A stretch of DNA of 64,000 bases from a virus. Below are positions 10,731-62,517 of the stretch, one piece after another (position 1 is the stretch's first letter; the number at the start of each line of letters is the position of its first letter). The stretch is taken from the IMG/VR virus record IMGVR_UViG_3300033144_002959, positions 29,709 through 93,708 of that record, one strand, 5' to 3'. The notes beneath the pieces were generated by a model. It was given only the letters and a program-made list of their open reading frames with translations. It did no database searches and was not told where the DNA came from. Made by a program: the position numbers and the translations under genes.

Positions 10731-10746
10731 GTCCAATTGATTGGAC
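10731..10746. promoter_or_regulatory. 16-bp palindromic site, copy 1
   Basis: Exact GTCCAATTGATTGGAC in a 28-bp intergenic gap. Confidence 0.8.
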
Positions 10747-10747
10747 G

Positions 10748-11158
10748 CTAGTCCAGATAGTTTACTGCCAGTGTGTAAGTGATCGAATCCGTGTCCCCGT
10801 GCGTCAACACCACCCTCCACAAATAAGGCAGACCATCTTTCGCGACAAGATTCGCAACCGCTGTCAGGTCAGGGTGAACTTTGTAAATATTGAACACCGC
10901 TGTCGTCACCGCTACACCGGTCAAAATGTTGTACCACGTATCCGAGCCGTAATCGTACCCGTCGATGGTCGCTACAACAGACGGAGTTGACGTGATAGAC
11001 GTAGCATCCAACAGGATATGAGCACCACGAAACCGCTGATGATTCGTCAGGAACGGGTACTCCGGTGCCGGAGTGGCATTAGGTACATCGGTTACTGGCG
11101 TCTCTGTTCGTGCTGCGCTTGTTAGCAGAACAATTGATTGCTGTACTGGTCCGCTCAT
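10748..11158 (-). CDS. Small beta-sandwich virion protein
   Basis: 136 aa; homologous to C-terminus of 11209-12105. Confidence 0.6.
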   Translation of the reverse strand: MSGPVQQSIVLLTSAARTETPVTDVPNATPAPEYPFLTNHQRFRGAHILLDATSITSTPSVVATIDGYDYGSDTWYNILTGVAVTTAVFNIYKVHPDLTAVANLVAKDGLPYLWRVVLTHGDTDSITYTLAVNYLD

Positions 11159-11208
11159 TTCAATCCTCCGTCATTGGTAGCCATTAAACAACTACCACGT
11201 TAATTCCA

Positions 11209-12105
11209 CTAGAGCTTATATTCCACTGAATAAGTTACAAGAGTTGCATCCCCGTGCTCTACTCTCACCCGCCACATATATGGCAGGACATCATTAGCCG
11301 ACAAATTGGCCACGTCATTGAGATACGATCCCACTTTCAACCGCTGCTTAGTGTTTTTCGCCGTAATATTTGCGCCAGCCAGAATAAGATACCAAGTACC
11401 TGACCCAAAATCGTAGCCCTCTATAAAACAAGTCAGATCAAATGGTCCGCCAGCCTGCTCGGGTAAGTCAATAATTACGTCTGTCGGAGGCCCACCGCCC
11501 CCTCCTTTGCCTTTGCCGCCAGAGCCAGCACCGCCCTGCTTCGTCGCTGGCTGTGTAACTACCGCCGTCTGCGTCTCATCATATTCCGCCTCGGGAATAG
11601 GCACCCCTCCACCGGGATTCTTTGGATTCTTAATCTTAGTGCCTTGATCGTAAGGCGGCAGTGGTGGTGGTGGAGCAGGCTCACCCTCAAACGTTGCTAC
11701 CCATTCGTTGCCCGCTTCAGACCCCCAATAACTGTCCTTACTTGGAAACCAGTAATATGTCCCCGCCGTTGAACTGCCCTGATCCAAATCACCACCAGCG
11801 CCAACATCAGCAAAATCAAACACGACATCAGCCTCGCCACTCCGAGACAAAGTCAAAGTCAGAATTGAATCAAAATCCCACTCCGTAGGAGATTCATCAC
11901 CCGGATCAAACCACATTTCCGTGCCGCCACTGGAAGTGCGATCACTGATTTCCATCCACTCGATATTGCCCGGTGGTGTATCATCTTGTAGGTAAGCCGG
12001 ATCAGGGACAATGGACCCAGTAGGCAGGCTAATTTTTGTGTACCCGTAAGTCGTACCGGAGAAAAACGCTACCGTAATCGTGTATGCCTGTGTCTCAATG
12101 GCCAT
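11209..12105 (-). CDS. Two-domain virion protein with Pro/Gly-rich linker
   Basis: 298 aa; PAPPPPLPP and GGAGSGGKGKGGGGGPP linker; C-terminal domain duplicates 10748-11158. Confidence 0.6.
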   Translation of the reverse strand: MAIETQAYTITVAFFSGTTYGYTKISLPTGSIVPDPAYLQDDTPPGNIEWMEISDRTSSGGTEMWFDPGDESPTEWDFDSILTLTLSRSGEADVVFDFADVGAGGDLDQGSSTAGTYYWFPSKDSYWGSEAGNEWVATFEGEPAPPPPLPPYDQGTKIKNPKNPGGGVPIPEAEYDETQTAVVTQPATKQGGAGSGGKGKGGGGGPPTDVIIDLPEQAGGPFDLTCFIEGYDFGSGTWYLILAGANITAKNTKQRLKVGSYLNDVANLSANDVLPYMWRVRVEHGDATLVTYSVEYKL

Positions 12106-12114
12106 GCCTGCCTC

Positions 12115-13047
12115 CTAAGTCGTAACGATCAATTGGCCGCTAACATCAGTTGAAACCGGCGGAACACGTTGATGCAGTACCTGAACCCAACACGTTGTTA
12201 CCTGAACATTAGGATTTGTAGCCCGCCCTAGAACTTCAGTGACAATATTAGTCAATTGTGTGTCCGGGTTCGCCTCGGTACCAGCGATCTCTGCCCATAA
12301 TCGAGTCATACGCACGGTCGTATTCGTGCTTGCATTGATCAGTGCCGTATCACCATTGGTACCGACCCCGAAATAGTCAATATCAAGAACACCCCCGTGA
12401 GCGGTCCCCGAGCCTACCCCGGTCCATCCTGCCGCCGTGATTCGACTACCACTCGTATCCTCGAAATCAATCTCCCACCACGGAGGTTCGTTGAGGCCGT
12501 TAATACCGTCAATCCAATGCTTTGCTTGCACCGTAACCGTCGCGCCCGTACCGTTGACTCTGAATCGCATGTACTGCCAAACATCAGAAACCGCATCATT
12601 CCAGTACGGGAGCCTCATGGTGTACATATAGCGGGGCGCTTGCTGATTACCAGAAACATATCCATCGAGAAGTTCTGTTTGAACACCAGCGGCCCACCGA
12701 TTGATTTCCAACTGGCCGAACTGATCGACCATTAAATCGTAGCCTGCTTCGTTTCCACCAGAGCCACTGGCCCGAAGGAATAGATTTGGGCGAGTATGTT
12801 GGTCGGCTGAATTTCTGTAACGACAAATGATTTCAGAGTTCGCCCGGTTGGCGTCGCCGTCTATGTCATCCCACGAGGCGAGCTGAAGACCTGTCCCTGA
12901 CGCTGCCGCTTGAAACACCCGATCATCTTCAGCATCTGTCGGTGCTTCTATAGTCCACTCAGACATCGCCGCGAACCTTGCCGTGAAATCGGTTGCAAAG
13001 ATTCCCGTAGTACCTTCGTCGCTAAAGTCTTTTGCGTAAGTCGTCAT
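12115..13047 (-). CDS. Lectin/ConA-like fold tail protein
   Basis: 310 aa; LRASGSGGNEAGY, WQYMRFRV, AAGWTGVG, DIDYFGVGT shared with 22940-23839. Confidence 0.6.
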   Translation of the reverse strand: MTTYAKDFSDEGTTGIFATDFTARFAAMSEWTIEAPTDAEDDRVFQAAASGTGLQLASWDDIDGDANRANSEIICRYRNSADQHTRPNLFLRASGSGGNEAGYDLMVDQFGQLEINRWAAGVQTELLDGYVSGNQQAPRYMYTMRLPYWNDAVSDVWQYMRFRVNGTGATVTVQAKHWIDGINGLNEPPWWEIDFEDTSGSRITAAGWTGVGSGTAHGGVLDIDYFGVGTNGDTALINASTNTTVRMTRLWAEIAGTEANPDTQLTNIVTEVLGRATNPNVQVTTCWVQVLHQRVPPVSTDVSGQLIVTT

Positions 13048-14126: not shown

Positions 14127-14129
14127 CAG

Positions 14130-15170: not shown

Positions 15171-15173
15171 AGT

Positions 15174-27831: not shown

Positions 27832-28129
27832 TCGTCAGTTCCTTAATGTAAGCCTTGAAGCCTTTCTTGTCAGCCCAAGCAGCGGCTCTGACATTTATGG
27901 CGAACGCAGCCCGCTCAGCATCTACACGTATTCTTGCCAACTCGACTAAACTGATTAACCTCCTGATCGGATATCGGAGCACTTTTTCATAATCGTGACC
28001 ATTGGCGATCAGGAATTCTGCTCCGGCTGCAAGTCCTTTAATCCACCGATCAAGGGATTCTGCACCTCGGCCAGACCCGTGTCGTTCAGCTTCCCGATGC
28101 TTTTGAGGATGCTTCCGGCCAGTTTTCCC
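27824..28129 (-). other. -1 programmed frameshift extension of tail assembly chaperone (GT-like)
   Basis: Slippery G GGA AAA at 28129-28123 in chaperone frame; -1 frame open to TGA at 27826-27824 (...WIKGLAAGAEFLIANGHDYEKVLRYPIRR...ELTNG), overlapping the TMP start. Confidence 0.8.
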
Positions 28130-28452
28130 AACGTCTCAATGTCCAGTGAAGACAAGTCCCATACCTCCTGAATGGCACGGAGCTGCACGCCTACCGGTAA
28201 TTTTCTGACCTGTTCCTCAAGATCATGCTCGTCAGCAGCGTACGCTATAGCTGCCGCCACAAATTGCGGGAACTCTTTCAATAAAATTTCAAAATCCGCC
28301 CCCGCTTCCGCACCAAACATTGCCTTCAATGCGTCCGTGTGGTTTTCCAGTAGCAACACAACATCCTCTAGTGAAAGCCCGCGCACCTGAAAATTCTGGT
28401 CCCCCGGACATTCAATCTCAACCTTTCGATCTACAAGGTCTCTTAAACTCAT
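28009..28452 (-). CDS. Tail assembly chaperone (G-like)
   Basis: 147 aa between tail tube and TMP; VRGLSLEDV motif; contains slippery site. Confidence 0.8.
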   Translation of the reverse strand: MSLRDLVDRKVEIECPGDQNFQVRGLSLEDVVLLLENHTDALKAMFGAEAGADFEILLKEFPQFVAAAIAYAADEHDLEEQVRKLPVGVQLRAIQEVWDLSSLDIETLGKLAGSILKSIGKLNDTGLAEVQNPLIGGLKDLQPEQNS

Positions 28453-28473: not shown

Positions 28474-28512
28474 AAAACTAGGGGGACGTCCAATTGATTG
28501 GACAATCCCCCC
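28474..28512 (-). terminator. Terminator-like hairpin containing 16-bp palindrome copy 2 (28488-28503)
   Basis: Minus strand GGGGGATT-GTCCAATCAATTGGAC-GTCCCCC-TAGTTTT just after the tail tube gene. Confidence 0.65.
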
Positions 28513-28526: not shown

Positions 28527-29303
28527 TTACGTTATTGTCGGGGCTTGCGTGATCTGGAAAAACTTCGATCCAACTGCCCGCGTTGCATCCGATAGCGCGT
28601 TACCCTCAACGGCCATCTGTGCAATCTCGTCATTGATCAAAGCCAGCTCGGCCAACGGTGTGATTTCCATCTTAAAGATATCAACCGTAACCGGGTTATC
28701 CAAGTCCGCCGTGTTCAACCCGTGGAACCGTGCCCAGCGAGTCGGATTCGCCGACACTGTCAAAGCGTCAACGGTCTCCTGAGCCACGTACGTGTAATCC
28801 GCCAACAGAGCCTGACCCTCGGTGATCGTACCCGTGCCTATGGGCCTGAACGCGCCTGCCGAAGCATCGAGTTCATAGTCGGTGTCGAGTACATACGTCA
28901 CAATTGCGCCGACATTTGTCAGCACAAAAGCCGCAACCTGAATGAAATCAAGCGGCGTCCACAGATCGATATAACCAGTTACCGCTTCGTCAGTCACGGT
29001 GCCTGCTATCACGTCAGCAGACGTACCCTTCAGGGAAATGGCCAAGTTCTCGGACTCAATCGATTCCATCGTCATGTTGACTGCGACACTAATCTCGGTG
29101 ATCAGCGTCAAGTCAACGGCTCGCTGGCCTGACTGGGATTCTTTGTGCTCAAACTCTGATATTTCATTACCGATAGTCAACGCGCTAACGTTTCCCACAG
29201 CTCTGAAACCCGAATTCGGCTCACCGGTCGTACCGTCTTTTGTTGCCAGCAACAGCACACCCTGACCGGAGAGGTAATTACTGGATTTTTCAGCAGTAGT
29301 CAT
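28527..29303 (-). CDS. Major tail (tube) protein
   Basis: YLSGQG...FRAVGNVSAL...EHKESQSGQR...ENLAISL.G; inserted Ig-like YVLDTDYELD domain; position before chaperone and TMP. Confidence 0.85.
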   Translation of the reverse strand: MTTAEKSSNYLSGQGVLLLATKDGTTGEPNSGFRAVGNVSALTIGNEISEFEHKESQSGQRAVDLTLITEISVAVNMTMESIESENLAISLKGTSADVIAGTVTDEAVTGYIDLWTPLDFIQVAAFVLTNVGAIVTYVLDTDYELDASAGAFRPIGTGTITEGQALLADYTYVAQETVDALTVSANPTRWARFHGLNTADLDNPVTVDIFKMEITPLAELALINDEIAQMAVEGNALSDATRAVGSKFFQITQAPTIT

Positions 29304-32806: not shown

Positions 32807-32822
32807 GTCCAACCAATTGGAC
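32807..32822. promoter_or_regulatory. 16-bp palindromic site, copy 3 (1 mismatch)
   Basis: GTCCAACCAATTGGAC, extended by flanking T/A, intergenic after the capsid gene. Confidence 0.75.
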
Positions 32823-32887: not shown

Positions 32888-33832
32888 TTAGCCGATGTTC
32901 GTGTACTTAACAGTGGCTTCCTCTTCCTCGTACTTGAAGTCCATCCGCATCGTCAAGACAATGATATACACACGAGCACTGATGTCTTTATCAGTCTCAA
33001 TATGGATGTCCCTCTGGATGCCGAAAATCATATTCAGCGGATTGGTCGTTAAACCATTCGACGCTGGCATGAGGCTGGCAGGATCGACCGCGACGCCGAA
33101 CCCGAACACTGGTGATGTGCCCTGAATCTGCGCGTCTCCCAAAGCCGTCTCACGATTCGCAAGCGAGTCGCGATAAGCAATTTCGTTATCCACTGAACAG
33201 AAGTGGCGCATCGCAGCACGGTTGCGAAGGTACTGATCAGGCATCGCCTGAAGACCTTGCTTCCATGTGTCCTTACTGATTTCAGCACCAGCAACGTCCA
33301 CAACATTGGTAGTGGACTGAATCAGCCAGCCATCGAGCAATGCAAGGAACGGATCGCCTGATCCGACGTCTCCGAGCAACGCCAGCTCTTCAAGGTCAAG
33401 CGCAGCACGCTCGGCAATGAGAGTCATGATCGTGTCACGGATACCGCCAGACGTCGGCGTACCATTCGTGTCGGTGTGCATACCGATATTGCCGCGCTCG
33501 ATATTGTCTTCGATAACGTCATACGGCAACCGCACTTCTGCGATTACTTCAGACGTTGCCAGCAAGACCTGCTCGGTCGTCGGGGCTGATCGATCACCCA
33601 CCACGAGAGGTGTGTTCGAAACAGCAGGGTGCAAGATTCGACTGGAAAACTGAATCTTGTTGATCTGCCGCTGCGGACTCGACATCGTCACGACACGCGA
33701 TTGATTGAGGATTGTAGGCTGAACGAGCAGCTTACGAATAAACTGGTTCGACTGTTCGTCGTTCAGTAGGCCACCGCTTGATAGATCGCCAACCGACCAG
33801 TCCGCTTTTTGCATCAAGTCTTTGTTGTCCAT
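32888..33832 (-). CDS. Major capsid protein (HK97 fold)
   Basis: GGLLNDEQSNQFI, YDVIEDNIE, AALDLEELALLGD, LDGWL, NPLNMIFGIQRDI; follows protease and scaffold. Confidence 0.92.
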   Translation of the reverse strand: MDNKDLMQKADWSVGDLSSGGLLNDEQSNQFIRKLLVQPTILNQSRVVTMSSPQRQINKIQFSSRILHPAVSNTPLVVGDRSAPTTEQVLLATSEVIAEVRLPYDVIEDNIERGNIGMHTDTNGTPTSGGIRDTIMTLIAERAALDLEELALLGDVGSGDPFLALLDGWLIQSTTNVVDVAGAEISKDTWKQGLQAMPDQYLRNRAAMRHFCSVDNEIAYRDSLANRETALGDAQIQGTSPVFGFGVAVDPASLMPASNGLTTNPLNMIFGIQRDIHIETDKDISARVYIIVLTMRMDFKYEEEEATVKYTNIG

Positions 33833-35873: not shown

Positions 35874-35900
35874 CTACTCTTTGCAAATAATTGGACTAGA

Positions 35901-39635: not shown

Positions 39636-39651
39636 GTCCAATTGATTGGAT
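39636..39651. promoter_or_regulatory. 16-bp palindromic site, copy 4 (1 mismatch)
   Basis: GTCCAATTGATTGGAT between the putative -10 box and the portal ATG. Confidence 0.75.
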
Positions 39652-39658: not shown

Positions 39659-39688
39659 ATCATACAACGTTCATTCAAAAACGTGCAA
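39659..39688 (-). promoter_or_regulatory. Putative sigma70-like promoter of the structural operon
   Basis: TTGCAC-N18-TATGAT upstream of the portal gene. Confidence 0.5.
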
Positions 39689-43660: not shown

Positions 43661-43950
43661 GTGATCGCCTTCCATTCGACTTTGTTTTTGTTTAGTTCAG
43701 TGGCACGAATCCGGCCCATCAAAACTCCGAGGTACGTCAGATCAAAATCAACCACCGCGAATTCTGTCCTGACCCCTTTACCCGTGTCCCCTTCCAGCCT
43801 AATGCCAGTAATCGCATTCGTTGCAGTCCAAACAATTTCCTCATTTTCGTCCAGACCGGGAAACGGATTACCGGTTGTTATCTGGTCGCCCTTTTCGAAT
43901 TTCCTAAGTGCAGTTGCATCCATGTCAAATACCTTACGTCCCTTCGCCAT
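43657..43950 (-). CDS. Hypothetical protein
   Basis: 97 aa, overlaps neighbours. Confidence 0.6.
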   Translation of the reverse strand: MAKGRKVFDMDATALRKFEKGDQITTGNPFPGLDENEEIVWTATNAITGIRLEGDTGKGVRTEFAVVDFDLTYLGVLMGRIRATELNKNKVEWKAIT

Positions 43951-44929
43951 TGATCACCCCAAGGTCAGGCATCGGAGTTTCAAATTCCAACCCTGTGCCC
44001 ATCAGTACCGCGCCCAGTGCTCGCTTCGCAATCAGCTCTTCAATGCCATTGAAGTGCACCGACGTGTACCCTTTTTGTATGTAGTCTTCATTGAATCCTG
44101 CCGCGACCAGCGGGTCTTTATGTTTGCCAACCGGCCCCTCGACTCGGATACTCAAATTCGAATTGCTCACCCATCGGGCAGCGAACTTTAGTTTCCCGGC
44201 AATGCCAATGCAGTGATACGTACTGGAATCACTCGTGGCTTTAACCGGCTGATACATCGTTGTCGCCTGCGACAGTTTCACCTTATCCATTTTCAGCGCA
44301 ACGTCTTTGTCCGTTGGAAATACTTCACTCACTTTCGGGCCGTGCACAATCTCATCTTTATCAGGGAACACGGTCACTTCATCGGACTGGTTGAACTGAG
44401 TGTCAACCAAATTTCCTAATTCAACCTGTCCCTTAATAAACGCAGTCCCCTCCATGCTCTCTTCGGCCTCAACGTCATCCAGCATTGCCGATGCCATGTG
44501 CTCTTTGAATACTTTGCCCTCGACAAATTCGCTTGAACTGATCGTGCCAATCTTGGGGCCGGTCTTCTCACCTTCCGCAGCCAACTGGTCAAGGTCTTTC
44601 CAGACTGCCGCTACTGACCCGGTTTTCTTCAGAGGCTTTTTCTTCAACTGTTTCAAGCAAATCGAAAGGGCACCGTTTATTTTCTTCGCCACTTCCTCTT
44701 GTGCAGCAACAGGCAAAATACCTTCCTTTGCCATTTTCAATATGCCGGATTTGATCGGCATATCTTTGACGATGCCATACTCGTGGTTACCGAACTCCAG
44801 CTTGGTGCCTGCGACATTAGCCTTACAGATAACGTCGTAATTTTTCAGTGACGATACCTGTTCAATAGACAACCCGAGACCGAACCATGCGTCCAGTTTC
44901 TCGGGGGTGTATTTGAAACTCAGTGCCAT
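43934..44929 (-). CDS. Hypothetical protein
   Basis: About 331 aa with own promoter and GACATGGAGGC RBS. Confidence 0.75.
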   Translation of the reverse strand: MALSFKYTPEKLDAWFGLGLSIEQVSSLKNYDVICKANVAGTKLEFGNHEYGIVKDMPIKSGILKMAKEGILPVAAQEEVAKKINGALSICLKQLKKKPLKKTGSVAAVWKDLDQLAAEGEKTGPKIGTISSSEFVEGKVFKEHMASAMLDDVEAEESMEGTAFIKGQVELGNLVDTQFNQSDEVTVFPDKDEIVHGPKVSEVFPTDKDVALKMDKVKLSQATTMYQPVKATSDSSTYHCIGIAGKLKFAARWVSNSNLSIRVEGPVGKHKDPLVAAGFNEDYIQKGYTSVHFNGIEELIAKRALGAVLMGTGLEFETPMPDLGVINGEGT

Positions 44930-44956
44930 CAATTGCCTCCATGTCTGTATATAATC

Positions 44957-44985
44957 ATTGTGCCTGATTGATGCACGTCTGTCAA
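44957..44985 (-). promoter_or_regulatory. Sigma70-like promoter
   Basis: TTGACA-gacgtgcatcaatcagg(17)-CACAAT. Confidence 0.7.
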
Positions 44986-44989
44986 ACTC

Positions 44990-45685
44990 TCACTTGACAT
45001 CAAGATCACCGAAAATACAGTGCTTCGCATTAACCGGATTGATCATTGCTTGCATCGCTTTGGTTGTTGTCCCAATCTTTTTTTTGCTGCCGAAAACCTT
45101 CGCGCCCTTGACTTCTTTACAGGCAAAATATTTCATTAAGAATTTGACCTGCGTCGTGGACTCGACCGCTTTCTTACAATAGTTTTTGCGTACATACGTG
45201 ATCGCATCAGGCTCATCAGTCATCACCGCGACCAATGCACTGAGCACAATCCCGGTTCTGCCGTGGCCTCCAATGCAACCAATGTGCACCTTCTGACCGT
45301 CACGAATCTGATCGGCCAACCAAGCAATCAACTCTATAAATTCATCGGAGTCTTTCGGCACCGACATATCTTTGATTTCATAATGAATAGCATGACCGTG
45401 CGCCCACGGAAACCGCTGCTTATGCTGCTTCATGCCGTAATCAAGACCAACGTAAATGTCAGCGTCATTGTGGATTGGGTATGAGCACGATCCGCCAAAC
45501 ACGAACCGGGTTCCACCTTCTGACAAATTCAATTCCAATGGTGGGTGACTTTCATAACAGCGTTTGAATTCGCCCCACTTGGTTTTTGATTTCGATTTCT
45601 GTGACTCCCACGTGGACGCAGCAGTCGAATCCCAATCGGGAGTCGAACTAATCGCCACAACTTTTCCTGATTTTTTAGTAGTCAC
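44990..45685 (-). CDS. Cys-based (PTP/DSP-like) phosphatase
   Basis: VHIGCIGGHGRTG (CX5R), IKDMSVP (WPD-loop equivalent), AVESTTQ. Confidence 0.88.
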   Translation of the reverse strand: MTTKKSGKVVAISSTPDWDSTAASTWESQKSKSKTKWGEFKRCYESHPPLELNLSEGGTRFVFGGSCSYPIHNDADIYVGLDYGMKQHKQRFPWAHGHAIHYEIKDMSVPKDSDEFIELIAWLADQIRDGQKVHIGCIGGHGRTGIVLSALVAVMTDEPDAITYVRKNYCKKAVESTTQVKFLMKYFACKEVKGAKVFGSKKKIGTTTKAMQAMINPVNAKHCIFGDLDVK

Positions 45686-46730
45686 GTGCCTTCACCGCCT
45701 TTTTAATTTTCACTCCGGGCATCACTTCGAAATACAACTTCTCGTGTGCCGCCTTTTTCGCCGCCGCTGCATCCTTCGCCGCCGCAACTTTCTCCAGCAC
45801 CGCTGCATTGGCAGCTTTGAATTTTGGATCGTTACCGAACTTTTGCATGTTCGCTGACTTATACTGATCGTATGTTTGAACCGCACCCAACGCTTCAACA
45901 ACGTCCCAGTCAACCCAACTGTCGTACTCTGTTTTTAGCAATGTCTCCATCGAGAACAGATCGCCCGAATGCGTATTTTGCACGTGTGTGCAAAACGGTG
46001 ACCCGGACTTAATGAGGTTTGGAATTTGCCCAGCTCTTTGGCAATCCAAAATCGTGTACAACTGGAATGCGTCATAGTGCGTGAACTGAAATCCTTTGTT
46101 AAAAATTGGCCCATTGTTATGCGCCAATGCGTAACCAATATCGAGCATCATTTCAACGCTGATTTTTCCGTTCACAGTATCGCGTATCGCTTCGGTGACA
46201 CTGCCCCACGGCTTGCCGCCATAACTCGATGACCAGCTCAACGTGTTAAATACGTCAACCAAATAATCCAGATACGGTCCCAACTTCAGATCACCACTGT
46301 AATTAAACAGAGCCTTCTGAGCACCGGACTTCACTTTTTTCGTAAAGTCCGCACACTGCGAACCATGTTTTTGGATCAACTGGTCTTCTTGCACATTCGT
46401 CAAATGCCGTGACTCACGAGTTGTCGTGATCAGAATGTACTGGAACAATCGCGACCCAGCGGAATTCAAAACTTCGTGGAATCGTTCAACCAATGGCAGC
46501 TTACTGCCCAATGGTTCATCGGGATCGTGCGCAGCTTCAATCTCACCCATCGCGTGCTGCAACAGATAAAATTCAAGCGCCTCGCTCTCAGGGCTTTTCT
46601 GCCCTGCCGAGTTAAGGTTCGCTTTCGCAGTCTTCCCGGCAACCGATAAAGGTACCTGCGACAAATCACGCGCCATCGTACCGGGGCGCTCACTCTTGTG
46701 GTATGCAATTGTGTCGTAATCGTGAATCAT
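45675..46730 (-). CDS. Hypothetical protein with RESRH / YGGKPW / HNNG motifs
   Basis: 351 aa from ATG 46730 with GACATGGAGGC RBS and own promoter; lies between two phosphatases. Confidence 0.75.
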   Translation of the reverse strand: MIHDYDTIAYHKSERPGTMARDLSQVPLSVAGKTAKANLNSAGQKSPESEALEFYLLQHAMGEIEAAHDPDEPLGSKLPLVERFHEVLNSAGSRLFQYILITTTRESRHLTNVQEDQLIQKHGSQCADFTKKVKSGAQKALFNYSGDLKLGPYLDYLVDVFNTLSWSSSYGGKPWGSVTEAIRDTVNGKISVEMMLDIGYALAHNNGPIFNKGFQFTHYDAFQLYTILDCQRAGQIPNLIKSGSPFCTHVQNTHSGDLFSMETLLKTEYDSWVDWDVVEALGAVQTYDQYKSANMQKFGNDPKFKAANAAVLEKVAAAKDAAAAKKAAHEKLYFEVMPGVKIKKAVKARDY

Positions 46731-46752
46731 CAAGCCTCCATGTCTTACCTTT

Positions 46753-46781
46753 AGTATGCCTGCGTGAACCGCGTTTGTCAA
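46753..46781 (-). promoter_or_regulatory. Sigma70-like promoter
   Basis: TTGACA-aacgcggttcacgcagg(17)-CATACT. Confidence 0.7.
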
Positions 46782-46783
46782 AT

Positions 46784-47338
46784 CTACTTATACGATCTGA
46801 CTATTTTCGCTAACCGTTTGACATCGAAATCTCGCACAAACTCTTCCTGTGCTTTTGTCTCGACAGCTTCCGGGCGATACATTGCACGGGCCTTACTAAC
46901 GTAATCGACCGTTCGAAAATCCCACCATCGCCGGGTCGATTCGTGCGCCACCTTAATCAGCAGTGCCACAAATAATCCTGTCCTGCCTCTGCCCCAACCG
47001 CAGCCCACAAACGGAATCAAACCGCCCTTCATCAGCACAATCGTGCTCAGCAAAGCGCTCTCAACCAGCTTCGTATTAGGGATGCCGAAATCTTTGATCG
47101 GACAATCGACCATGTACTTTGCTTTCATTTCCGCAGCCAACTTAATGCCGGGACTATCCTTCGGCTTCTCACTGTACGGCCCAGCCATAACCGGGGACAC
47201 ACCCCACGGAAATAGAATACCAAACGCTATTGTCTCAACCGCTGGGTGTCCAATTGATTGGACGCCTGCAAAATCGAACACGTCATCGTCTTCGATTTGG
47301 TATTCGATATCCACGTTATAGTTTTTCTTTTCTGACAC
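46784..47338 (-). CDS. Cys-based (PTP/DSP-like) phosphatase
   Basis: FVGCGWGRGRTG (CX5R), IKDFGIP, AVETKAQEEFV; GTG start at 47338 after CACGGAGG (ORF track 47437). Confidence 0.88.
   Translation of the reverse strand: MSEKKNYNVDIEYQIEDDDVFDFAGVQSIGHPAVETIAFGILFPWGVSPVMAGPYSEKPKDSPGIKLAAEMKAKYMVDCPIKDFGIPNTKLVESALLSTIVLMKGGLIPFVGCGWGRGRTGLFVALLIKVAHESTRRWWDFRTVDYVSKARAMYRPEAVETKAQEEFVRDFDVKRLAKIVRSYK
47248..47263. promoter_or_regulatory. 16-bp palindromic site, copy 5
   Basis: Exact GTCCAATTGATTGGAC inside the 5' part of the phosphatase gene. Confidence 0.75.
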
Positions 47339-47342
47339 TGCG

Positions 47343-47777
47343 CTACCTCCGTGCTTTGTGTCTGTTATTCGTATTTCCATTTTGCCTGCGTGACGCACGT
47401 TTGTCAACGCCGCTACAATCGGGGCATGGCCACTCACGCCTGTGTGAATTCTCGCACTCCGAAAGTTCGCAGTGCCCGTTGCAACTTACGCAAGCCTCAT
47501 ACACGACAAATTTCCGCGTATCGTCACAGCTCACACAATCCGGCTCATAAAAACTCAGGGACTCAAGCCTATTACGGTTCACCGTCAACAGCAGGTCGCC
47601 ATAGCGACGATTGCCCTCTGGGTGGGTGATGGGAGCGCTTAAATACACGGCCTCCCTGAGCCACGTCAGAGCGTCTGAGCCATCCTGCAAATCCATGTCT
47701 CGGACCCAGCCCAACAAACTCAACGGGATACTAATCCCCTGATTTTGCTGCTTTCTTTTTCCGATATACAACGCCAC
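47343..47777 (-). CDS. Hypothetical protein with CxxC zinc-finger repeats
   Basis: CVSC, CVSC.G, CPDCSG motifs. Confidence 0.65.
   Translation of the reverse strand: MALYIGKRKQQNQGISIPLSLLGWVRDMDLQDGSDALTWLREAVYLSAPITHPEGNRRYGDLLLTVNRNRLESLSFYEPDCVSCDDTRKFVVYEACVSCNGHCELSECENSHRREWPCPDCSGVDKRASRRQNGNTNNRHKARR
47379..47407 (-). promoter_or_regulatory. Sigma70-like promoter
   Basis: TTGACA-aacgtgcgtcacgcagg(17)-CAAAAT. Confidence 0.7.
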
Positions 47778-48045
47778 GATCTACTTTTATCCTCCGTGGT
47801 GCTTCGACAACCACCTTGACTCCATGCCGTTTAATATCTGCACCTGTTCCGGCACTCACCCTGACCTGCGGCAAAATTTCCGACGCACGTCGATCAGTAA
47901 CTTCATGCACCGTATGCAGGGCTGGCTGAAAAACTTTCAGATGGAAATTAAATTCGTGCCGAATATCGTGCAAAACCACGCGCACGTCGTCAACATAAAA
48001 ATCGTTGTACGGTTCATCGGGGTAAAGTTCCAATACCAATCCCAT
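47731..48045 (-). CDS. CsrA/RsmA-like RNA-binding protein (extended)
   Basis: GVKVVVEAPRRIKVDRGVVYRK resembles CsrA [22 protein letters not shown]; N-terminus MGLVLE resembles CsrA beta-1. Confidence 0.6.
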   Translation of the reverse strand: MGLVLELYPDEPYNDFYVDDVRVVLHDIRHEFNFHLKVFQPALHTVHEVTDRRASEILPQVRVSAGTGADIKRHGVKVVVEAPRRIKVDRGVVYRKKKAAKSGD

Positions 48046-48505
48046 CGTCTTCCTCCGTGTTCACGCTGATACTCAGCGCTGTTAATGCTCGCCGGGTTAC
48101 TCTCCATATGGAGCCACCCTTTGTACCGGGCCGAGCCTCTACCCGTTCGATCAAACCTTTGTGCATCAATACGATCAACTGACTACTCACGTCCGACGTA
48201 TTCTGGCCACTCACCCCGCACAAGTCCCGAGTCGTTACAGTCTTCGGGTACAACGATGCGACATGCCCTAAGCACTTTTTGAGTTTCGTACCCTGTTCAG
48301 GCATTCGAAACTCTTCCTTTTTCTGAGTGTGTATGCGGAAACCACCATCAGTAGTTTTCGCATAAACATAACGATGCAGTCCGCAAATGCAACGCTGAAT
48401 AATATCCATGTCCGTGATTTCGTACCAAGCATTGCCATGACATTTCGGGCACTCATCCCGTTCGTTCATCACTCGCGGTTGCTTTCGTACGATCCGTACA
48501 GCCAT
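48014..48505 (-). CDS. Zn-ribbon plus winged-helix DNA-binding protein
   Basis: CPKC...CICG, then VTTRDL...TSDVSSQLIVLMHKGLIERV...WRVT. Confidence 0.7.
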   Translation of the reverse strand: MAVRIVRKQPRVMNERDECPKCHGNAWYEITDMDIIQRCICGLHRYVYAKTTDGGFRIHTQKKEEFRMPEQGTKLKKCLGHVASLYPKTVTTRDLCGVSGQNTSDVSSQLIVLMHKGLIERVEARPGTKGGSIWRVTRRALTALSISVNTEEDDGIGIGTLPR

Positions 48506-48511
48506 ATACCC

Positions 48512-50650
48512 TCACTTGAACACGTCAAATACCAAGCGATTTTTGGATACAGCCTTTGGCTTTACCCGCACCGGAGTACCGGCTTTCTCCATCATTTCGA
48601 ACAGCTTAGTCGCGACGTGCTCGCCTCCGATTTCTTTGGCGAACCCTTCATCAATCTCGACTATACCATCGCTTTCAAGTAATTCCTCAATTGTTTCAAC
48701 ACGTGACACCACCTTCCAACCCGCATCACGTAATTTGTTGACCTGATCTGGCGTCGAAAAACTAGACGGAACTATGATCACTTTTTCTTTCAGTTTCTGC
48801 CAATTCAAATTCATCAACGCCTTTATTCGATCATGCGTTTCCGCTTCATTGACCGAATTGTTAGGTGGCCCAACCAGATTCCAAAGCATCTTGTCGGCAT
48901 CCAACCTGTTCTCTCCGGGCAACGTCAAATCAATGTAGCACTCAACAATATCGGTGTCGGCTTCCGCCTTCATCAGAAATTGTGTGAACTGTCCAAGGTC
49001 TGATCCCCCGGTCGCAATGTATCGATTGTCCAGCACCTTGCTATCGTGCGACGTCTTGACCATAACCTTATCGGTCGCATCAATCGCCCAACCTAAAACA
49101 GTTTTCGCGTAATCGTCAACGTCGCCTTTCGTAAGCACCAACGGTTGTAACCAGACTTTACCGCTGGCACCGTCAATCGTAATCTTTGGCCAACCAGATA
49201 TCTCCGGCAAGTCTATGCAACCAACAACACAATGTTTTTCAAGTGATCGCCCGACAACCGCTGCATGACTGGTCGCTCCCCCGGTTCGTGTCAGGATGCC
49301 GACACTCGCTGCCATGCCCCCAAAATCTTCTGGCGTCGTTTCATCCGTGACCAGTATCACCGGCTTATCCGCACCGAGCATCTTAGCTTCCTCAGCACTG
49401 GTAACAACGCTACCAACAACCAGACCACCACCAGCGGCGATACCCTGATAATCCGGCTCAGGAACTTCGCCCTTGATCCGAACTTTTTTCATTGCCATGT
49501 ACTGCTTGGCGCTAACTCGACTGACCGCTTCCTCTTTGGAAATCAATCCGCCCTTCGCCATGTCATGTGCAATTCTGAATGCTGCCTTGCCGCTTCGCTT
49601 GCCAACTCTGCACTGGAGCATCCAAAGTTTACCGTCTTCAACAGTGAACTCGATATCCATCATTTCTTTGTAATGCTTCTCAAGCGTCATGGCGATATCA
49701 TCCAGTTCTTTCGCAATGTCCGCATTCCAAACAGCCATGCCCGTTAAATCGAGCGGAGTAGTAGTGCCAGCAACAACGTCTTCGCCCTGAGCGTTCACAA
49801 GGAACTCACCCATCATTGCGTTTTTGCCTGTTGCTGGGTCGCGAGTAAACGCAACACCGGAACATGACTCATCGTTCATGTTGCCATACACCATCATTTG
49901 AATGTTGACCGCAGTACCCAAGTCATTATCCATGTCGTGCAACTCCCGGTATTCTTTCGCTCGCTTGCTGTCCCACGAGTTGAACACCGCAGTAATCGAT
50001 CCGATCAACTGATCACGCAAGGTGTCGGGAAAGTCGGTGCCAAATCGTTTCGCGTAATGCGTCTCAAACTTAATAACCGCTTTGGTCAAATGCTTGACAC
50101 TCTTCACCGTCTCCGCATCGGAACTCGGTGACGATTTCAAATTATATTTGTAGCCCTTGATGAAATCCCACAACTGACCGAACCCATGCAAGCCCTTAAC
50201 CGTTGTGGCGTACTGAGAAATCTGACGACGTCTGCAATCAAGCGCTGAGCATTCGCCCAGTCGCGATTTCCAGTCATCAAGATTGTCGGACGTCAGCCCG
50301 ATATTCAACAGGGTATCCATCATACCCGGCATCGAAAACTTACCGCCAGATCGCACAGAAAACAGCGGCTCATAGCCAACCGTCTTCGTGATTTTTTCCA
50401 GCGCCGGAAGCACATACTTATCAACTAACATTTCGACATACTTATTTTTTTCAAAGTTGCCGGTCATGTCGTTTCGATATGAATTACATGCCAGTGTCGG
50501 AATCGTGATCCCGTAAGGTACAGGCATACCCAGCTTGGCCATTTCAGCAAGGTTCGCGCCCTTGCCACCAAGCAGGTCTGACATTGAAGCATCGCCTTCG
50601 GTGAAACCATTCACCGAACCGAATTGATAAATTACTTGACCTTCTGCCAT
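48512..50650 (-). CDS. Pyruvate phosphate dikinase-like protein lacking the pyruvate-binding barrel
   Basis: GGKGANLAEM, SVRSG..SMPGMMDT, NAQGEDVVAG, DIEFT, GGATSHAAVV present; 712 aa; canonical C-terminal motifs not seen. Confidence 0.9.
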   Translation of the reverse strand: MAEGQVIYQFGSVNGFTEGDASMSDLLGGKGANLAEMAKLGMPVPYGITIPTLACNSYRNDMTGNFEKNKYVEMLVDKYVLPALEKITKTVGYEPLFSVRSGGKFSMPGMMDTLLNIGLTSDNLDDWKSRLGECSALDCRRRQISQYATTVKGLHGFGQLWDFIKGYKYNLKSSPSSDAETVKSVKHLTKAVIKFETHYAKRFGTDFPDTLRDQLIGSITAVFNSWDSKRAKEYRELHDMDNDLGTAVNIQMMVYGNMNDESCSGVAFTRDPATGKNAMMGEFLVNAQGEDVVAGTTTPLDLTGMAVWNADIAKELDDIAMTLEKHYKEMMDIEFTVEDGKLWMLQCRVGKRSGKAAFRIAHDMAKGGLISKEEAVSRVSAKQYMAMKKVRIKGEVPEPDYQGIAAGGGLVVGSVVTSAEEAKMLGADKPVILVTDETTPEDFGGMAASVGILTRTGGATSHAAVVGRSLEKHCVVGCIDLPEISGWPKITIDGASGKVWLQPLVLTKGDVDDYAKTVLGWAIDATDKVMVKTSHDSKVLDNRYIATGGSDLGQFTQFLMKAEADTDIVECYIDLTLPGENRLDADKMLWNLVGPPNNSVNEAETHDRIKALMNLNWQKLKEKVIIVPSSFSTPDQVNKLRDAGWKVVSRVETIEELLESDGIVEIDEGFAKEIGGEHVATKLFEMMEKAGTPVRVKPKAVSKNRLVFDVFK

Positions 50651-50677
50651 TTATGCCTCCCTGTCTTTGGTACCCTC

Positions 50678-50894: not shown

Positions 50895-51417
50895 ACCCAG
50901 CGTACCCCGCAAAGTTATCCAACGTCACGATGTCCAGTTTGAAATGCGTGTCCGTCTTATTCAAAACCTCGCGCCATTTTGTTGTGCGAAGTATATTCAA
51001 TCGTTTCGTCGGTGCCGGAATTTCATACGGCGTCGTGCCTTGGATACCGTAGCGCAAAACATCGTACGCCTCAACCGATCCTTCGCCCTGCTCAAGCGCA
51101 ATGAACACCGTCCGATAGTGCGGAAATACTCGGATGATTGACGTCCAGTCTCCGGCCCTCTCGCTGAAACCCACAGCTGCCTGATATGTCGAGTGCAAGT
51201 AGTTGAATGCGTCCCGCAATTTTACTTCGTGCCGACTACTCACGTTCATATGTTTTCGAATCGCTTCCTGAGTGGTCGTATCGATCACCATTGCGTTCAC
51301 AACTTCACGGATTTTCTCGCGGTTAAATTGCACCAGCTGATCGTGATAATAAATCAGCCCGTTCCACGTGCTCGCGGAATTCGGTGCTTTCAATGCTTGG
51401 GTCAAATCGTATTTCAA
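50866..51417 (-). CDS. Hypothetical protein
   Basis: 183 aa, TTG start with CACGGAGG RBS. Confidence 0.65.
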   Translation of the reverse strand: MKYDLTQALKAPNSASTWNGLIYYHDQLVQFNREKIREVVNAMVIDTTTQEAIRKHMNVSSRHEVKLRDAFNYLHSTYQAAVGFSERAGDWTSIIRVFPHYRTVFIALEQGEGSVEAYDVLRYGIQGTTPYEIPAPTKRLNILRTTKWREVLNKTDTHFKLDIVTLDNFAGYAGYATEYLLSE

Positions 51418-51434
51418 TCTAGCCTCCGTGACTA

Positions 51435-52040
51435 TTACTCTACTATTGCATAGTGAAACCGCTTTGTCAAATAGACTTTATGCTCATTTGAATCCAGCGC
51501 CATCCACAGCTTGTAATCCCTATCGAAATATCGGTGCACTGCTTGCAACAACTCAGTGTCGTAAAAATCAGGCCAGTGATAATAACCATGCTGCGGTTTG
51601 TAAGGCATTTTCATCGACACCCCGAGCCAGTCCGACAAAGCCCCTTTCGCCAACCACTGCATACGCTCAAGCTGCCCGACCCATATCAGACCATCGGCAC
51701 CACTCAAATGCCCAGCAAGTTCGTTCGTCTGTGGCCGGATATGAGCATTAAAGCTGTCAGGGTCTTGGGCCAATACCCACCGGCACCACTCTGGGAAATC
51801 GACGTGCGGCCCAAACTTCGATATACCGTCGAGAGTAGATGTCTCAATCTTTGGCCTAACAAGATGATTCCAACACGACACCAACCTGTGTGCTGGGTTA
51901 CGGACCACGGTCACATAACGATGTTCAGGAAACTGGTGTGGCCCCCAATGCTTTCCTGCGAACGCCTTTCGAATATTCGATGACCCGCACTTCATCAATC
52001 CAATAGCTGTGACTGCTCCGCATTCTATGGGGACTGACAC
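51435..52040 (-). CDS. Sulfotransferase family 2-like protein
   Basis: MKCGSSNI (5'-PSB), VVRNPAHRLVSCW (3'-PB), HIRPQ, VGQLE, FYD...YFDRDY. Confidence 0.82.
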   Translation of the reverse strand: MSVPIECGAVTAIGLMKCGSSNIRKAFAGKHWGPHQFPEHRYVTVVRNPAHRLVSCWNHLVRPKIETSTLDGISKFGPHVDFPEWCRWVLAQDPDSFNAHIRPQTNELAGHLSGADGLIWVGQLERMQWLAKGALSDWLGVSMKMPYKPQHGYYHWPDFYDTELLQAVHRYFDRDYKLWMALDSNEHKVYLTKRFHYAIVE

Positions 52041-52476: not shown

Positions 52477-52492
52477 GTCCAATCAATTGGAC
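52477..52492. promoter_or_regulatory. 16-bp palindromic site, copy 6
   Basis: Exact reverse orientation GTCCAATCAATTGGAC, intergenic, 9 nt before an ATG. Confidence 0.8.
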
Positions 52493-52496
52493 TCGA

Positions 52497-52805
52497 CTAC
52501 TCAATCGTAACGGATAAATCTGCCACGGCTTCAGGAGCTGACAAAATCTGCTCCGACGTTACTTCAGCAGTATCCGAGCGCCGAGCCTCGGTATCCACAA
52601 CAACAGCCCGAAAGATATACGTGCCCGGTGCTAGATCAGCCACCACATGCTCAACATCAGGCGGAGGTACCTGAGCCAGACCAGAAAAATTCTCGCCGCC
52701 ATCAGCACTCATGCTGATTTCAAGATGCTCAATTTGTGCCTCGGGTAATGCCTCGCCGAGAACTCGTTTTGTTGGCCATGTCCACGCTAATCTTGCTGTG
52801 CTCAT
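52497..52805 (-). CDS. Fibronectin type III-like domain protein
   Basis: ARLAWTWP...ADLAPGTYIFRAVVVDTEARRS. Confidence 0.7.
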   Translation of the reverse strand: MSTARLAWTWPTKRVLGEALPEAQIEHLEISMSADGGENFSGLAQVPPPDVEHVVADLAPGTYIFRAVVVDTEARRSDTAEVTSEQILSAPEAVADLSVTIE

Positions 52806-58345: not shown

Positions 58346-58375
58346 AGCTTCCTCCGTGATTTTATTTGGTCAGAC

Positions 58376-58404
58376 ACCATAGCCTGACTGTTCTAATTTG
58401 TCAA
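58376..58404 (-). promoter_or_regulatory. Sigma70-like promoter
   Basis: TTGACA-aattagaacagtcaggc(17)-TATGGT. Confidence 0.65.
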
Positions 58405-58616
58405 ATGCCACGGCGAAACGTACCCATACTATCCAATTGATTGGACGGATGCGGTTCCCCGAATCCCTTACACGCTCCACACCTGTGCCGCTCTTTGTAT
58501 CGGCCTGCACGAATATTGAAGACGTCTTCGGCCCCACGTTGTTTCGGGTTCGCCATGCCTGAGCCTTTGCAATATTGACAAACGACTACGTCACCTGTTG
58601 TCGTGTACGTTGTCAT
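58401..58616 (-). CDS. DnaJ-type zinc-finger microprotein
   Basis: CQYCKGSG and CGACKGFG. Confidence 0.6.
   Translation of the reverse strand: MTTYTTTGDVVVCQYCKGSGMANPKQRGAEDVFNIRAGRYKERHRCGACKGFGEPHPSNQLDSMGTFRRGI
58431..58446. promoter_or_regulatory. 16-bp palindromic site, copy 7 (1 mismatch)
   Basis: ATCCAATTGATTGGAC, 26 bp upstream of a TTGACA -35 box. Confidence 0.75.
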
Positions 58617-60007: not shown

Positions 60008-60022
60008 AATTACCTCCTGATT

Positions 60023-60675: not shown

Positions 60676-60707
60676 CGTCTAGCCTCCTTGTCGAAACTGG
60701 TCGTGAC

Positions 60708-60736
60708 ACCTTAATGTGTTTGGTCTGGTTTGTCAA
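60708..60736 (-). promoter_or_regulatory. Sigma70-like promoter
   Basis: TTGACA-aaccagaccaaacacat(17)-TAAGGT. Confidence 0.6.
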
Positions 60737-61145: not shown

Positions 61146-61147
61146 TG

Positions 61148-61330
61148 TTACCTCTCTTCGTTGCCGAACGTCTCCATCCAGTACAACACAACTTCCTTGG
61201 CTTCCGCCTTGTCAACGTCGAACTCGCTCTCGACGTACGCGCCAGCACCAAACATATTCGTGGCACCGGACTCCCTCAGTCCATCCAGATAAACCAATCG
61301 TTCATCGGTCACACTCTCTGGTCTCGTCAT
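61148..61330 (-). CDS. Small hypothetical protein (LRESGxTNMF family)
   Basis: YLDGLRESGATNMFGA; ATG at 61330 with GACATGGAGGC RBS. Confidence 0.7.
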   Translation of the reverse strand: MTRPESVTDERLVYLDGLRESGATNMFGAGAYVESEFDVDKAEAKEVVLYWMETFGNEER

Positions 61331-61353
61331 TTTTCTGCCTCCATGTCTTCTGA

Positions 61354-61593
61354 TTAAACGTACACCGGCATCTTCGCAACGGTGCACACCACAACAGGCT
61401 TCAGCTTGTACAGGAATTCTTTCCCGCACTCTTCGCAGTCCACCTTGCCTTCACCCTTCAGTCCCGCACCATCTTCGTTTTTGTACGGGGACTCATTCGC
61501 CATTGCCGAAAACGGGGCATACGATATTTCCATTCCGTCTCCAGTGTGGTCGCAGTACGGGCATGTCATCGTAACTTCATTTTTCCCAGTCAT
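61354..61593 (-). CDS. Zn-ribbon protein
   Basis: CPYC...CEECGKEF; ATG at 61593 with GACATGGAGGC RBS. Confidence 0.65.
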   Translation of the reverse strand: MTGKNEVTMTCPYCDHTGDGMEISYAPFSAMANESPYKNEDGAGLKGEGKVDCEECGKEFLYKLKPVVVCTVAKMPVYV

Positions 61594-61607
61594 ACCTGCC
61601 TCCATGT

Positions 61608-62438
61608 CTAACTCAAAACTGCAACTCGGTTAACCATTGTTTCGTTAACCCCCTTGTAATCTCCGTGCTTTTTGACAGTGGCCTTGAACCGGATTTCGTC
61701 ACCGGCTTTCGGCTCCCACTTGTATCCAGAATAAAACGTGGCAAGTCTGTGCCCGCCTGAATCAATCATCTTGACCAACGTGCTGCCACCGTAATCGCTA
61801 TCGATCAACATGGTGGAAACAATCGTGGCTTCGAACTCATAACGCTTTTTCAATTCCCCGAAGTGATCATCAACTGAAACCAGCACCGCTCCGTGGTTTT
61901 CCAAGAAAGTATTCAACGCCAGATTTCGTAATTCGTCGGACGGAAAGGTGAAGTTCTCACGAGTTGCCATCCACTCCAGATAGCCCCGGTCAAACTTGTT
62001 AACCTCGACCCATGTCTTGCCAGCATACTTGCCGCCACCAAAAGTACCCAGCGGGTACCGGGTCAAATTGATCATCGTCCAGTAATCGTTATTCTCCGTG
62101 CGTTCGTTGGACTCGATTGCCAGCGCGTATGTGCGTTCCGCCATTTCCTCAGCGCTCGCTCGCGTCAGCTTTCTCATTTCCTCTTCCATGCCTTCGCGCT
62201 CGGTGATCATCGGAATGCCCATCGCCTTGCCAGCTTCGTTGGCTTTTTCCCACGCCAGATCAGCTGTGTTCGCGAGGTTCCTGTGATGAAAAGACCGAAC
62301 GGTCTTGTCCATGTATCCGCCTGCACCGCCAACCCAGCGTTCGTGCAGGTAGGTTTCACGCAGGGTCCAGAACCCAAACGTGGCACCGATGCCTATGAAT
62401 AGCACCGGAGAAAAAGAATTTGCAGAGCCGTTTTTCAT
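61608..62438 (-). CDS. Hypothetical protein with C-terminal OB-like domain
   Basis: GGKYAGK...YLEW motif; SDYG...GDEIRFKATVKKH.DYKGV.ET.VNR C-terminus. Confidence 0.7.
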   Translation of the reverse strand: MKNGSANSFSPVLFIGIGATFGFWTLRETYLHERWVGGAGGYMDKTVRSFHHRNLANTADLAWEKANEAGKAMGIPMITEREGMEEEMRKLTRASAEEMAERTYALAIESNERTENNDYWTMINLTRYPLGTFGGGKYAGKTWVEVNKFDRGYLEWMATRENFTFPSDELRNLALNTFLENHGAVLVSVDDHFGELKKRYEFEATIVSTMLIDSDYGGSTLVKMIDSGGHRLATFYSGYKWEPKAGDEIRFKATVKKHGDYKGVNETMVNRVAVLS

Positions 62439-62465
62439 ACTGCCTCCATGTCAATCTACACCCCA

Positions 62466-62494
62466 ATTATCGCACAATGGGTACGTATTGTCCA
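62466..62494 (-). promoter_or_regulatory. Sigma70-like promoter
   Basis: TGGACA-atacgtacccattgtgc(17)-GATAAT; the -35 box is itself a palindrome half-site. Confidence 0.65.
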
Positions 62495-62501
62495 ATGATT
62501 T

Positions 62502-62517
62502 GTCCAATCAATTGGAC
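62502..62517. promoter_or_regulatory. 16-bp palindromic site, copy 8
   Basis: Exact GTCCAATCAATTGGAC with flanking T/A, 7 bp upstream of the -35 box. Confidence 0.8.

Follow-up and report, generated by a model that had tools for sequence, protein, structure and literature searches.

Palindromic sites repeated around a whole replicon have been described in plasmids and in phages. On the IncP-1 plasmid RK2, the OB operators of the KorB protein lie next to promoters, some way off, or kilobases away, and KorB clamps and slides on DNA through its ParB N-terminal CTPase domain, with KorA acting as a lock (PMC11790492). The Cluster O mycobacteriophages carry more than 30 genome-wide copies of a 17-bp dyad repeat, 5'-TGTTCGGNNNCCGAACA, which has invariant 7-bp inverted arms and a 3-nt spacer; many copies are intergenic, others are near gene 5' ends, and no orientation bias is seen (PMC4351075). 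These phages have no known lysogeny functions and the function of their repeat is unknown (PMC4351075). The stoperators of Cluster A, to which a temperate phage's immunity repressor (L5 gp71) binds, are asymmetric and oriented with transcription (PMC4351075). Here we describe a 16-bp word, GTCCAATTGATTGGAC, repeated throughout the 93,708-bp phage genome of IMG/VR record IMGVR_UViG_3300033144_002959 (G000). Unless stated otherwise, positions refer to a stretch of 64,000 nucleotides of this record (bases 29709-93708), which we call the window.

Copies of the word are non-randomly distributed, free of orientation, evenly spaced, concentrated at gene-module boundaries and conserved at syntenic places in related phages. 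The word has in common with the Cluster O repeats the invariant inverted arms, the many copies, the indifference to orientation and the mixture of intergenic and 5'-proximal coding positions. However, sequence, spacer and host phylum are unrelated, and no binder was proposed in Cluster O, whereas here the word varies by lineage at syntenic sites and a candidate binder can be named. As in the KorB-OB system, one palindromic operator is placed around a whole replicon at varied distances from promoters, although the word is unrelated in sequence to OB and the replicon is a one-strand 94-kb phage. With stoperators the sites share a short sequence present in many copies in short intergenic spaces genome-wide, where stoperator binding blocks transcription (PMC4351075). 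The sites here are nevertheless symmetric, and on a near one-strand genome the TG/CA centre is oriented 7:7 with respect to the direction of transcription. In addition, the G000 proteins scanned, which take in about 60% of the small open reading frames (ORFs), include neither an integrase nor a partition gene, nor a CI-type repressor (PF01381). The stoperator analogy drawn in an initial annotation of the window fails on orientation, the word being a near-perfect palindrome. Judging from the sequence comparisons below, we lean towards the word being the dimer site of one phage protein and its 14 copies being an evenly spaced genome-wide array, whichever protein the binder may be.

Copies of the palindrome and their placement

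The phage record is complete (114-bp direct terminal repeats, CheckV 100%). Its guanine-plus-cytosine (GC) content is about 50%, it is approximately 90-95% coding, and its long ORFs are almost all on the minus strand (about 61 kb versus 6 kb). Megablast of 20 kb against GenBank phages gave no match, and relatives were gathered through an exact-word scan of IMG/VR together with a portal-protein search. The window was searched with the pattern GTCCAATNNATTGGAC (GTCCAAT-(TG/CA)-ATTGGAC), and the level expected by chance was taken from dinucleotide-preserving shuffles of the window (n=100). Five exact and three one-mismatch copies were found, compared with shuffle expectations of 0.01 and 0.27; the observed counts were reached by 0 of 100 shuffles, which excludes a chance origin of the copies. 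The whole genome contains 14 copies when up to one mismatch is allowed, and the middle dinucleotide of all 14 is either TG or CA.

Two exact copies occupy very short gaps between genes and run straight into a Shine-Dalgarno sequence and an ATG. The copy at 10731-10746 begins 1 nt past the stop codon of ORF 10748-11158 (minus strand) and is followed by AGGGG and, 11 nt on, by the ATG of ORF 10345-10719 (minus strand). The copy at 52477-52492 begins 4 nt past the stop of ORF 52497-52805 (minus strand) and is followed by GGGGG and an ATG 9 nt on. One site outside the window likewise begins within 1-4 nt of a stop codon. The exact copy at 28488-28503 is the core of an extended, terminator-like G5/C5 hairpin with a U-run, between ORFs 28527-29303 and 28009-28452 (both minus strand). 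That at 62502-62517 lies 7 nt upstream of a promoter-like TGGACA-N17-GATAAT (62466-62494, minus strand), the -35 hexamer of which is itself an additional half-site. The fifth, at 47248-47263, is within a phosphatase gene (46784-47338, minus strand), where it codes for VQSIG.

Among the one-mismatch copies, that at 32807-32822 differs at an inner position. It follows the major capsid gene (32888-33832) at a distance of 65 nt, and the next gene begins 56 nt further on. The copy at 39636-39651 covers the point at which transcription of the portal gene is predicted to begin, with a TATGAT -10 box 7 nt before it and the ATG (39629) 6 nt beyond, and the copy at 58431-58446 is 26 nt upstream of the promoter TTGACA-N17-TATGGT (58376-58404, minus strand). 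A degenerate copy, TTGCAAATAATTGGAC, with 3 mismatches among the 14 specified positions, is found at 35881-35896. It is a hybrid, one half being of the TGCAAT type of the relatives and the other of the type of this phage. Because it lies 7 nt ahead of the prohead protease gene (35256-35873), and because a site precedes the protease gene in 9 of 10 relatives, this copy is probably real.

These results recover all nine positions listed in the initial annotation, the degenerate one included, along with the 4-8 kb gaps it noted from 28 to 62 kb. Its reading of the portal copy as lying between -10 box and ATG, of two copies as just upstream of -35 boxes (58431 and 62502) and of one as part of a terminator stem (28488) is also borne out. 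Its division into six intergenic and two coding copies is not, since gene calls place seven of the eight window copies between genes and leave 47248 as the one clear coding copy.

Over the whole genome, 9-10 of the 14 sites are intergenic, though non-coding DNA makes up only about 10% of the sequence (P about 1e-6). The intergenic sites are mostly 0-25 nt past a stop codon, one site holds a stop codon at its centre, and one is inside a terS-like gene. The distances from one site to the next vary with a coefficient of variation (CV) of 0.55, compared with 0.91 for random placement (P=0.015) and 0.92 for random gene ends (P=0.019), and the shortest of them measures 3,164 bp (P=0.0006). In the related genomes G003 and G004, Stenotrophomonas phage DLP5 and Vibrio phage VH2_2019 (VH2), gap CVs are 0.40-0.48 against an expectation of about 0.95 (P<=2e-4), while those of G005 and G001 are 0.55-0.69 (P=0.001-0.006). 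Given the even gaps in G000 and its relatives, the sites tile the genome rather than cluster at one control region.

Conservation and variants in related phages

Close relatives (35-94% protein identity) carry the same word before the portal gene, after the capsid gene, in a position syntenic with 32807, and inside the phosphatase gene. More distant relatives, with GC contents of 38-61%, carry the common word GTGCAATTAATTGCAC (TGCAAT-NN-ATTGCA), from which the G000 word differs by a single symmetric G-to-C change. The scan of whole contig and relatives that the initial annotation had proposed yields 17-49 copies in the TGCAAT-type relatives. Allowing up to one mismatch, there are 49 and 46 copies in G001 and G002 (isolate-derived records), 24 each in G003 and G004, 22 in G005, 35 in DLP5, 34 in VH2 and 19 in Rhodobacter phage RcZahn. 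For Rhizobium phage RHph_TM16 (TM16) the count of 17 is for exact TGCAA-N4-TTGCA, in which the inner bases are variable. Private variants (GGCAAT, GGAAAT, TGAAAT, TGCACT and TGCAAC) occur at further loci. Syntenic sites survive 40-60% protein divergence and even a change of word. Absence from related genomes had been named at the outset as grounds for giving up the idea of a functional site; the word is instead kept at syntenic places.

In the coding copy at 47248, all 16 bases are identical in four genomes amid flanking residues that are unrelated on both sides, which shows that this copy is under selection as DNA and not as protein. The conservation check suggested for coding copies thus came out in favour of the site at this position.

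A complete related phage, G006 (IMGVR_UViG_3300009788_000003; loci L088-L092), is without the TGCAAT-type word. Its place is taken by TTTGAT-CTTAGT-ATCAAA, of which there are about 18 copies that point either way and occupy the same gene boundaries by synteny, among them before the protease gene, before the gene of the candidate binder discussed below and after the polymerase gene. This pattern suggests that G006 underwent a wholesale change of specificity. Five of the G006 copies are located 6-8 nt upstream of TTGACAAATAA promoters.

The exact G000 word was also found four times and twice, respectively, in two contigs of a Bacteroidetes metagenome-assembled genome bin, JADKBL010000048.1 (L180/L193) and JADKBL010000013.1 (L167/L195). 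The two contigs probably represent a related phage and are no guide to the host, because promoters here follow the TTGACA/TATAAT pattern. Literature searches with the motif string returned primers and unrelated matches only. In a search that covered part of the journals, no description of the repeat was found in the DLP3, DLP5 or RcZahn papers.

Duplex DNA or RNA hairpin

Symmetric changes between lineages keep pairing intact and consequently do not discriminate between a site in DNA and a site in RNA, but variation within genomes does. In 10 genomes there are 167 perfect sites and 118 with one mismatch; of the latter, 95 break a stem pair and 23 give G.U, and compensatory doubles number four. 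Certain stem-breaking half-sites are recurrent, namely TGAAAT in G001/G002 and TGCAGT in VH2, where they account for a third to half of sites, equally in both orientations and in the same kinds of places. The centre is invariably a pyrimidine-purine step (TG, CA or TA), and the two loop versions are exactly complementary. Stem-breaking variants, few compensatory doubles, the pyrimidine-purine centre and the complementary loops together fit duplex DNA recognised by a symmetric dimer better than a hairpin in RNA, and from this variation we consider the word a probable protein-binding site in duplex DNA.

Of the other explanations, the one that survives best, although we judge it improbable, is that the word acts in RNA as a 6-7 bp hairpin that forms in either orientation. 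Such a hairpin could end or stabilise the upstream message, attenuate read-through, or serve as a processing mark before the next ribosome-binding site. In its favour, and weighing against a duplex site, the core can fold as a hairpin of this size (about -7 to -8 kcal/mol), and the 28488 copy is within a good terminator (-26.4 kcal/mol, z -3.8, U-run). Pairing is also possible between the portal copy and the region of the start codon (-13.9 kcal/mol, z -3.9), sites lie close behind the preceding stop codon in the relatives as they do in G000, and the two sites at 10731 and 52477 directly precede a Shine-Dalgarno sequence and ATG. On the other hand, 80% of the one-mismatch sites are stem-breaking with next to no compensation, and a plain hairpin requires no sequence conservation over hosts of 38-61% GC. 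Folding is for most sites weakly better than that of shuffled sequence (z -0.9 to -2.5), a search of Rfam gave no family match for the motif, and the complementary loops fit recognition of a duplex. Rho-independent terminators resemble the 28488 copy in its GC-extended hairpin and U-run right after a gene, but a strong stem and a U-run occur together in one of the eight window copies, and terminators share no invariant sequence across a genome or among phages of different hosts. The RNA-hairpin alternative mentioned in the initial annotation is accordingly weakened as a general account, while the terminator-like hairpin predicted at 28488 stands. An RNA role at single sites, such as the terminator at 28488 or the start-codon pairing at the portal, is possible.

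A candidate binding protein

Genomes with an identical word should share its binder, and proteins were assessed by this test. A 274-aa protein encoded at bases 6222-7046 of the G000 record on the minus strand (L082:6225-7046:-), outside the window and within the replication-recombination module, is found in 11 of 11 genomes and is the sole one among the universal proteins that looks DNA-binding. Pfam searches were blank for it, also when its 42 homologs were used, as was a PDB sequence profile, and the connection to ParB and KorB came from fold comparison only. An AlphaFold2 model from the 42 homologs has a predicted local distance difference test score (pLDDT) of 84.7. It has a predicted helical domain at residues 25-159, and the stretch 35-166 aligns to the ParB DNA-binding domain (DBD)-parS complex 6s6h_B (Z 8.2, 116 residues), to Spo0J 1vz0 (Z 7.5) and to the KorB DBD-operator complex 1r71_A (Z 7.4, 106 residues), with weaker matches to KorB 8qa8, VirB, SopB, P1 ParB and Noc. 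In the model a Lys-rich N-terminal tail leads into the predicted DBD, and a CTPase domain is lacking. By its pattern, the part from residue 176 to 217, with one extended segment and two helices (TFKVHxDQKE...VALE), looks like a ribbon-helix-helix.

The gene of this protein has its genome's own motif variant upstream in 9 of 11 genomes and at about 20 further loci. In the G000 copy the predicted recognition helix opens with three changes, Y92R, R93S and Y97H, although R93 and Y97 are kept in at least 90% of the 42 homologs, and these changes coincide with the half-site G-to-C change that is unique to G000. The G006 copy is altered in an otherwise invariant GWxKLKE. Homologs from alphaproteobacterial phages have an extra acidic N-terminal extension of 130 aa, and G001, G002 and G005 also carry shorter paralogs.

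Several observations speak against the 274-aa protein as the binder. The best fold match of the model is Raf1, and for a domain built of helices throughout, Z scores of 7-8 are no more than moderate. In G000 the closest site lies 456 nt ahead of the start codon of the candidate gene and 404 nt ahead of its promoter, at neither of the two. G006 retains the canonical recognition helix despite its very different word, and several homologs with a canonical helix are paired with motif variants at inner positions. When altered residues were set against altered words, the counts were 5/5/9/29, a hand classification uncorrected for relatedness that gave no significant association (Fisher P=0.13). Taking the fold, the distribution and the coincident changes together, we tentatively propose the 274-aa protein as the binder while regarding the case as somewhat weaker than even.

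The slim chance that another phage protein fills this role was considered for three proteins. The Zn-ribbon/winged helix-turn-helix (wHTH) protein at 48014-48505 (minus strand), which the initial annotation had named, has a weak wHTH match and is strongly conserved in close relatives (68-82% identity). It was nevertheless found only in the G000 clade, G004, DLP5 and G006; no homolog was detectable in the motif-bearing G001, G002, G005, RcZahn, VH2 and TM16, and its presence in G006 is in a genome that lacks the motif. A MerR-type protein of the replication module passes the Pfam cut-off for MerR_1, but is missing from G001, G002, G005 and RcZahn. Neither distribution follows the word, and because same-word genomes should share a binder, both proteins are disfavoured. 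The terS-like protein, whose gene contains one of the sites, has an N-terminus that is unconserved among genomes with the same word, and was rejected.

For the remaining universal proteins (the 185-aa helicase neighbour, the 105-aa RecA neighbour, a 196-aa protein, a 252-aa protein resembling single-stranded DNA-binding protein and a 332-aa protein), searches with Pfam, PHROGs and PDB profiles turned up nothing that points to DNA binding. No XRE/Cro-type HTH (PF01381) is present in G000, and no gene was found that is in all motif genomes yet absent from G006.

Relation to ParB and KorB systems

A parS-like role for the sites was among the suggestions made from the sequence, with the advice to look for ParB genes outside the window. 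No ParB_N domain (PF02195) was found in the complete G000 genome, either by six-frame Pfam search or with a family-specific hidden Markov model, nor was one found in G006. A ParB_N protein is located directly upstream of terS-like and terL genes in all examined genomes with the TGCAAT word (G001-G005, DLP5, RcZahn, TM16 and VH2; e.g. L085:1-933). It is missing from precisely G000 and G006, both of which have a changed word. As a binder of the word this ParB_N protein was rejected, on account of its absence from these two genomes and because its HTH differs between subgroups with an identical word.

It is conceivable, but in our estimation highly improbable, that a genuine CTPase clamp of the ParB/KorB kind uses the sites, as parS-like centromeres or as points of loading, either to partition a prophage maintained as a plasmid or for silencing at a distance. 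DLP5 is reported to persist as a phagemid (PMC5834331), the TGCAAT-word genomes do encode ParB_N beside terS/terL, and the OB sites at which KorB loads are dispersed palindromes, possibly kilobases from promoters (PMC11790492). Against this, the complete G000 and G006 genomes do without ParB_N, and in the relatives this protein has an HTH region that is acidic and differs between subgroups with the identical word. Nor is there an integrase, ParA or repressor among the proteins scanned; a ParA or KorA-like partner was likewise absent from these, with no search dedicated to it.

KorB, like the role proposed here, exerts global control over many operons, and its DBD is among the folds to which the candidate aligns. 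A single 13-16 bp palindrome repeated across the replicon, as in KorB/ParB-type systems, is present in G000. KorB however needs its CTPase domain, which the 274-aa candidate lacks and which is not encoded in G000. For want of this domain the G000 array is not a member of the KorB/ParB-type systems.

Promoters and neighbouring genes

The promoter predicted for the portal and late genes, TTGCAC-N18-TATGAT (39659-39688, minus strand), was read from the sequence and is the sole promoter-like site at the head of the 40-kb structural block; a simple sigma70-type scan gave no promoter in this block. Its -10 region, GTTGTATnnT, is kept in relatives, and the arrangement of site and promoter at the portal is repeated in at least 10 of them.

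The same scan gave about 17 sigma70-type promoters in G000, with the common element TTGACAAACGTG. They share an extended consensus, TTGACAAACGTGc..CA....GG-cAtAcT, and are found in the early and replication regions, with none inside the structural block. From this consensus they look like a phage-specific promoter family; examples in the window, all on the minus strand, are 58376-58404, 51400-51435, 50640-50671, 46710-46746 and 44915-44950. The motif as a general promoter element or activator site is ruled out, as 3-4 of the approximately 17 promoters have a nearby site and the distances between site and promoter vary.

The phosphatase gene with the copy at 47248 probably starts at a GTG at 47338, behind GGAGG. 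It is part of a minus-strand block (43934-50650) that encodes a PPDK-like kinase, the Zn-ribbon/wHTH protein, a CsrA-like protein, a Cys-rich protein, the phosphatase, a 368-aa unknown, a second phosphatase and a 332-aa unknown. Most of this block is conserved in 11 of 11 genomes, and motif sites are located at its internal boundaries. Between the CsrA-like and phosphatase genes is the Cys-rich ORF (47343-47777, minus strand; four CxxC, up to 144 aa), which overlaps an over-long ORF call for the phosphatase. Homologs occur in G004, TM16, RcZahn and DLP5, where the annotation reads 'transcriptional repressor'.

Proposed role of the array

The idea of a dispersed palindrome bound by one protein across early and late regions, as a global operator or roadblock or as a parS-like organiser, was put forward in the initial annotation. 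It has gained from the orientation independence of the sites, the stem-breaking variants, the coding copy and the lineage variants, while the binder named with it has fallen away. We propose that a symmetric dimer of one phage-encoded protein would sit on each site and act as a local operator or roadblock. At the portal the dimer would cover the predicted transcription start. The 40-kb structural block has no other promoter at its head, so that a dimer bound at this site would gate the expression of late genes. At sites past stop codons or before promoters, it may stop or insulate transcription. Transcription control may well be the main role of the sites, a prospect that we place just short of even; the small share of promoters with a nearby site and the varying distances, already noted, count against it.

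As the sites tile the genome evenly, the array may also organise DNA as KorB or ParB do, although sliding would not be expected of a candidate without a CTPase domain. A role in replication or packaging is possible too, because the candidate gene is in the replication-recombination module.

A check for host repeats (repetitive extragenic palindromic or uptake sequences) across the genomes of 185,579 species gave, among the matches listed, scattered single copies at about the chance rate and a few small phage-like contigs with 2-4 copies. A host repeated element is ruled out, there being no high-copy bacterial chromosome among those matches. Least credible is the explanation that the copies are non-functional boundary or linker sequences, spread by recombination or as a small selfish element and tolerated between genes: their location at module boundaries, their occurrence in both orientations and the ease with which intergenic DNA accommodates a strict 16-mer would suit it, but the coding copy is exact in four diverged genomes, syntenic sites outlast protein divergence and word change, the spacing is even, and no host genome with the word in high copy is among the matches listed.

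In its fullest form the proposal extends to a family of 80-100 kb one-strand phages with many hosts, in which an orphan, clamp-less ParB/KorB-type protein and a palindrome lattice would form a whole-chromosome system. Such a system would gate the late operon, insulate transcription units and perhaps organise DNA for replication or packaging, with protein and word co-evolving so that sister lineages acquire private specificities. We regard this extended version as doubtful. If it is true, the G-to-C half-site change and R93S would represent a natural specificity switch, and the natural variants of word and protein, those of G000 included, are ready-made specificity swaps. If one protein does read an even lattice, it would be a form of genome-wide control known from a plasmid (KorB, RK2) and not worked out in a lytic-type phage; the Cluster O repeats have been unexplained since 2015. 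Because cultured members infect Stenotrophomonas, Vibrio natriegens, Rhodobacter and Rhizobium, the question is directly testable. In a family whose regulation is unannotated, the sites are also a practical marker of gene-module boundaries and of the late promoter.

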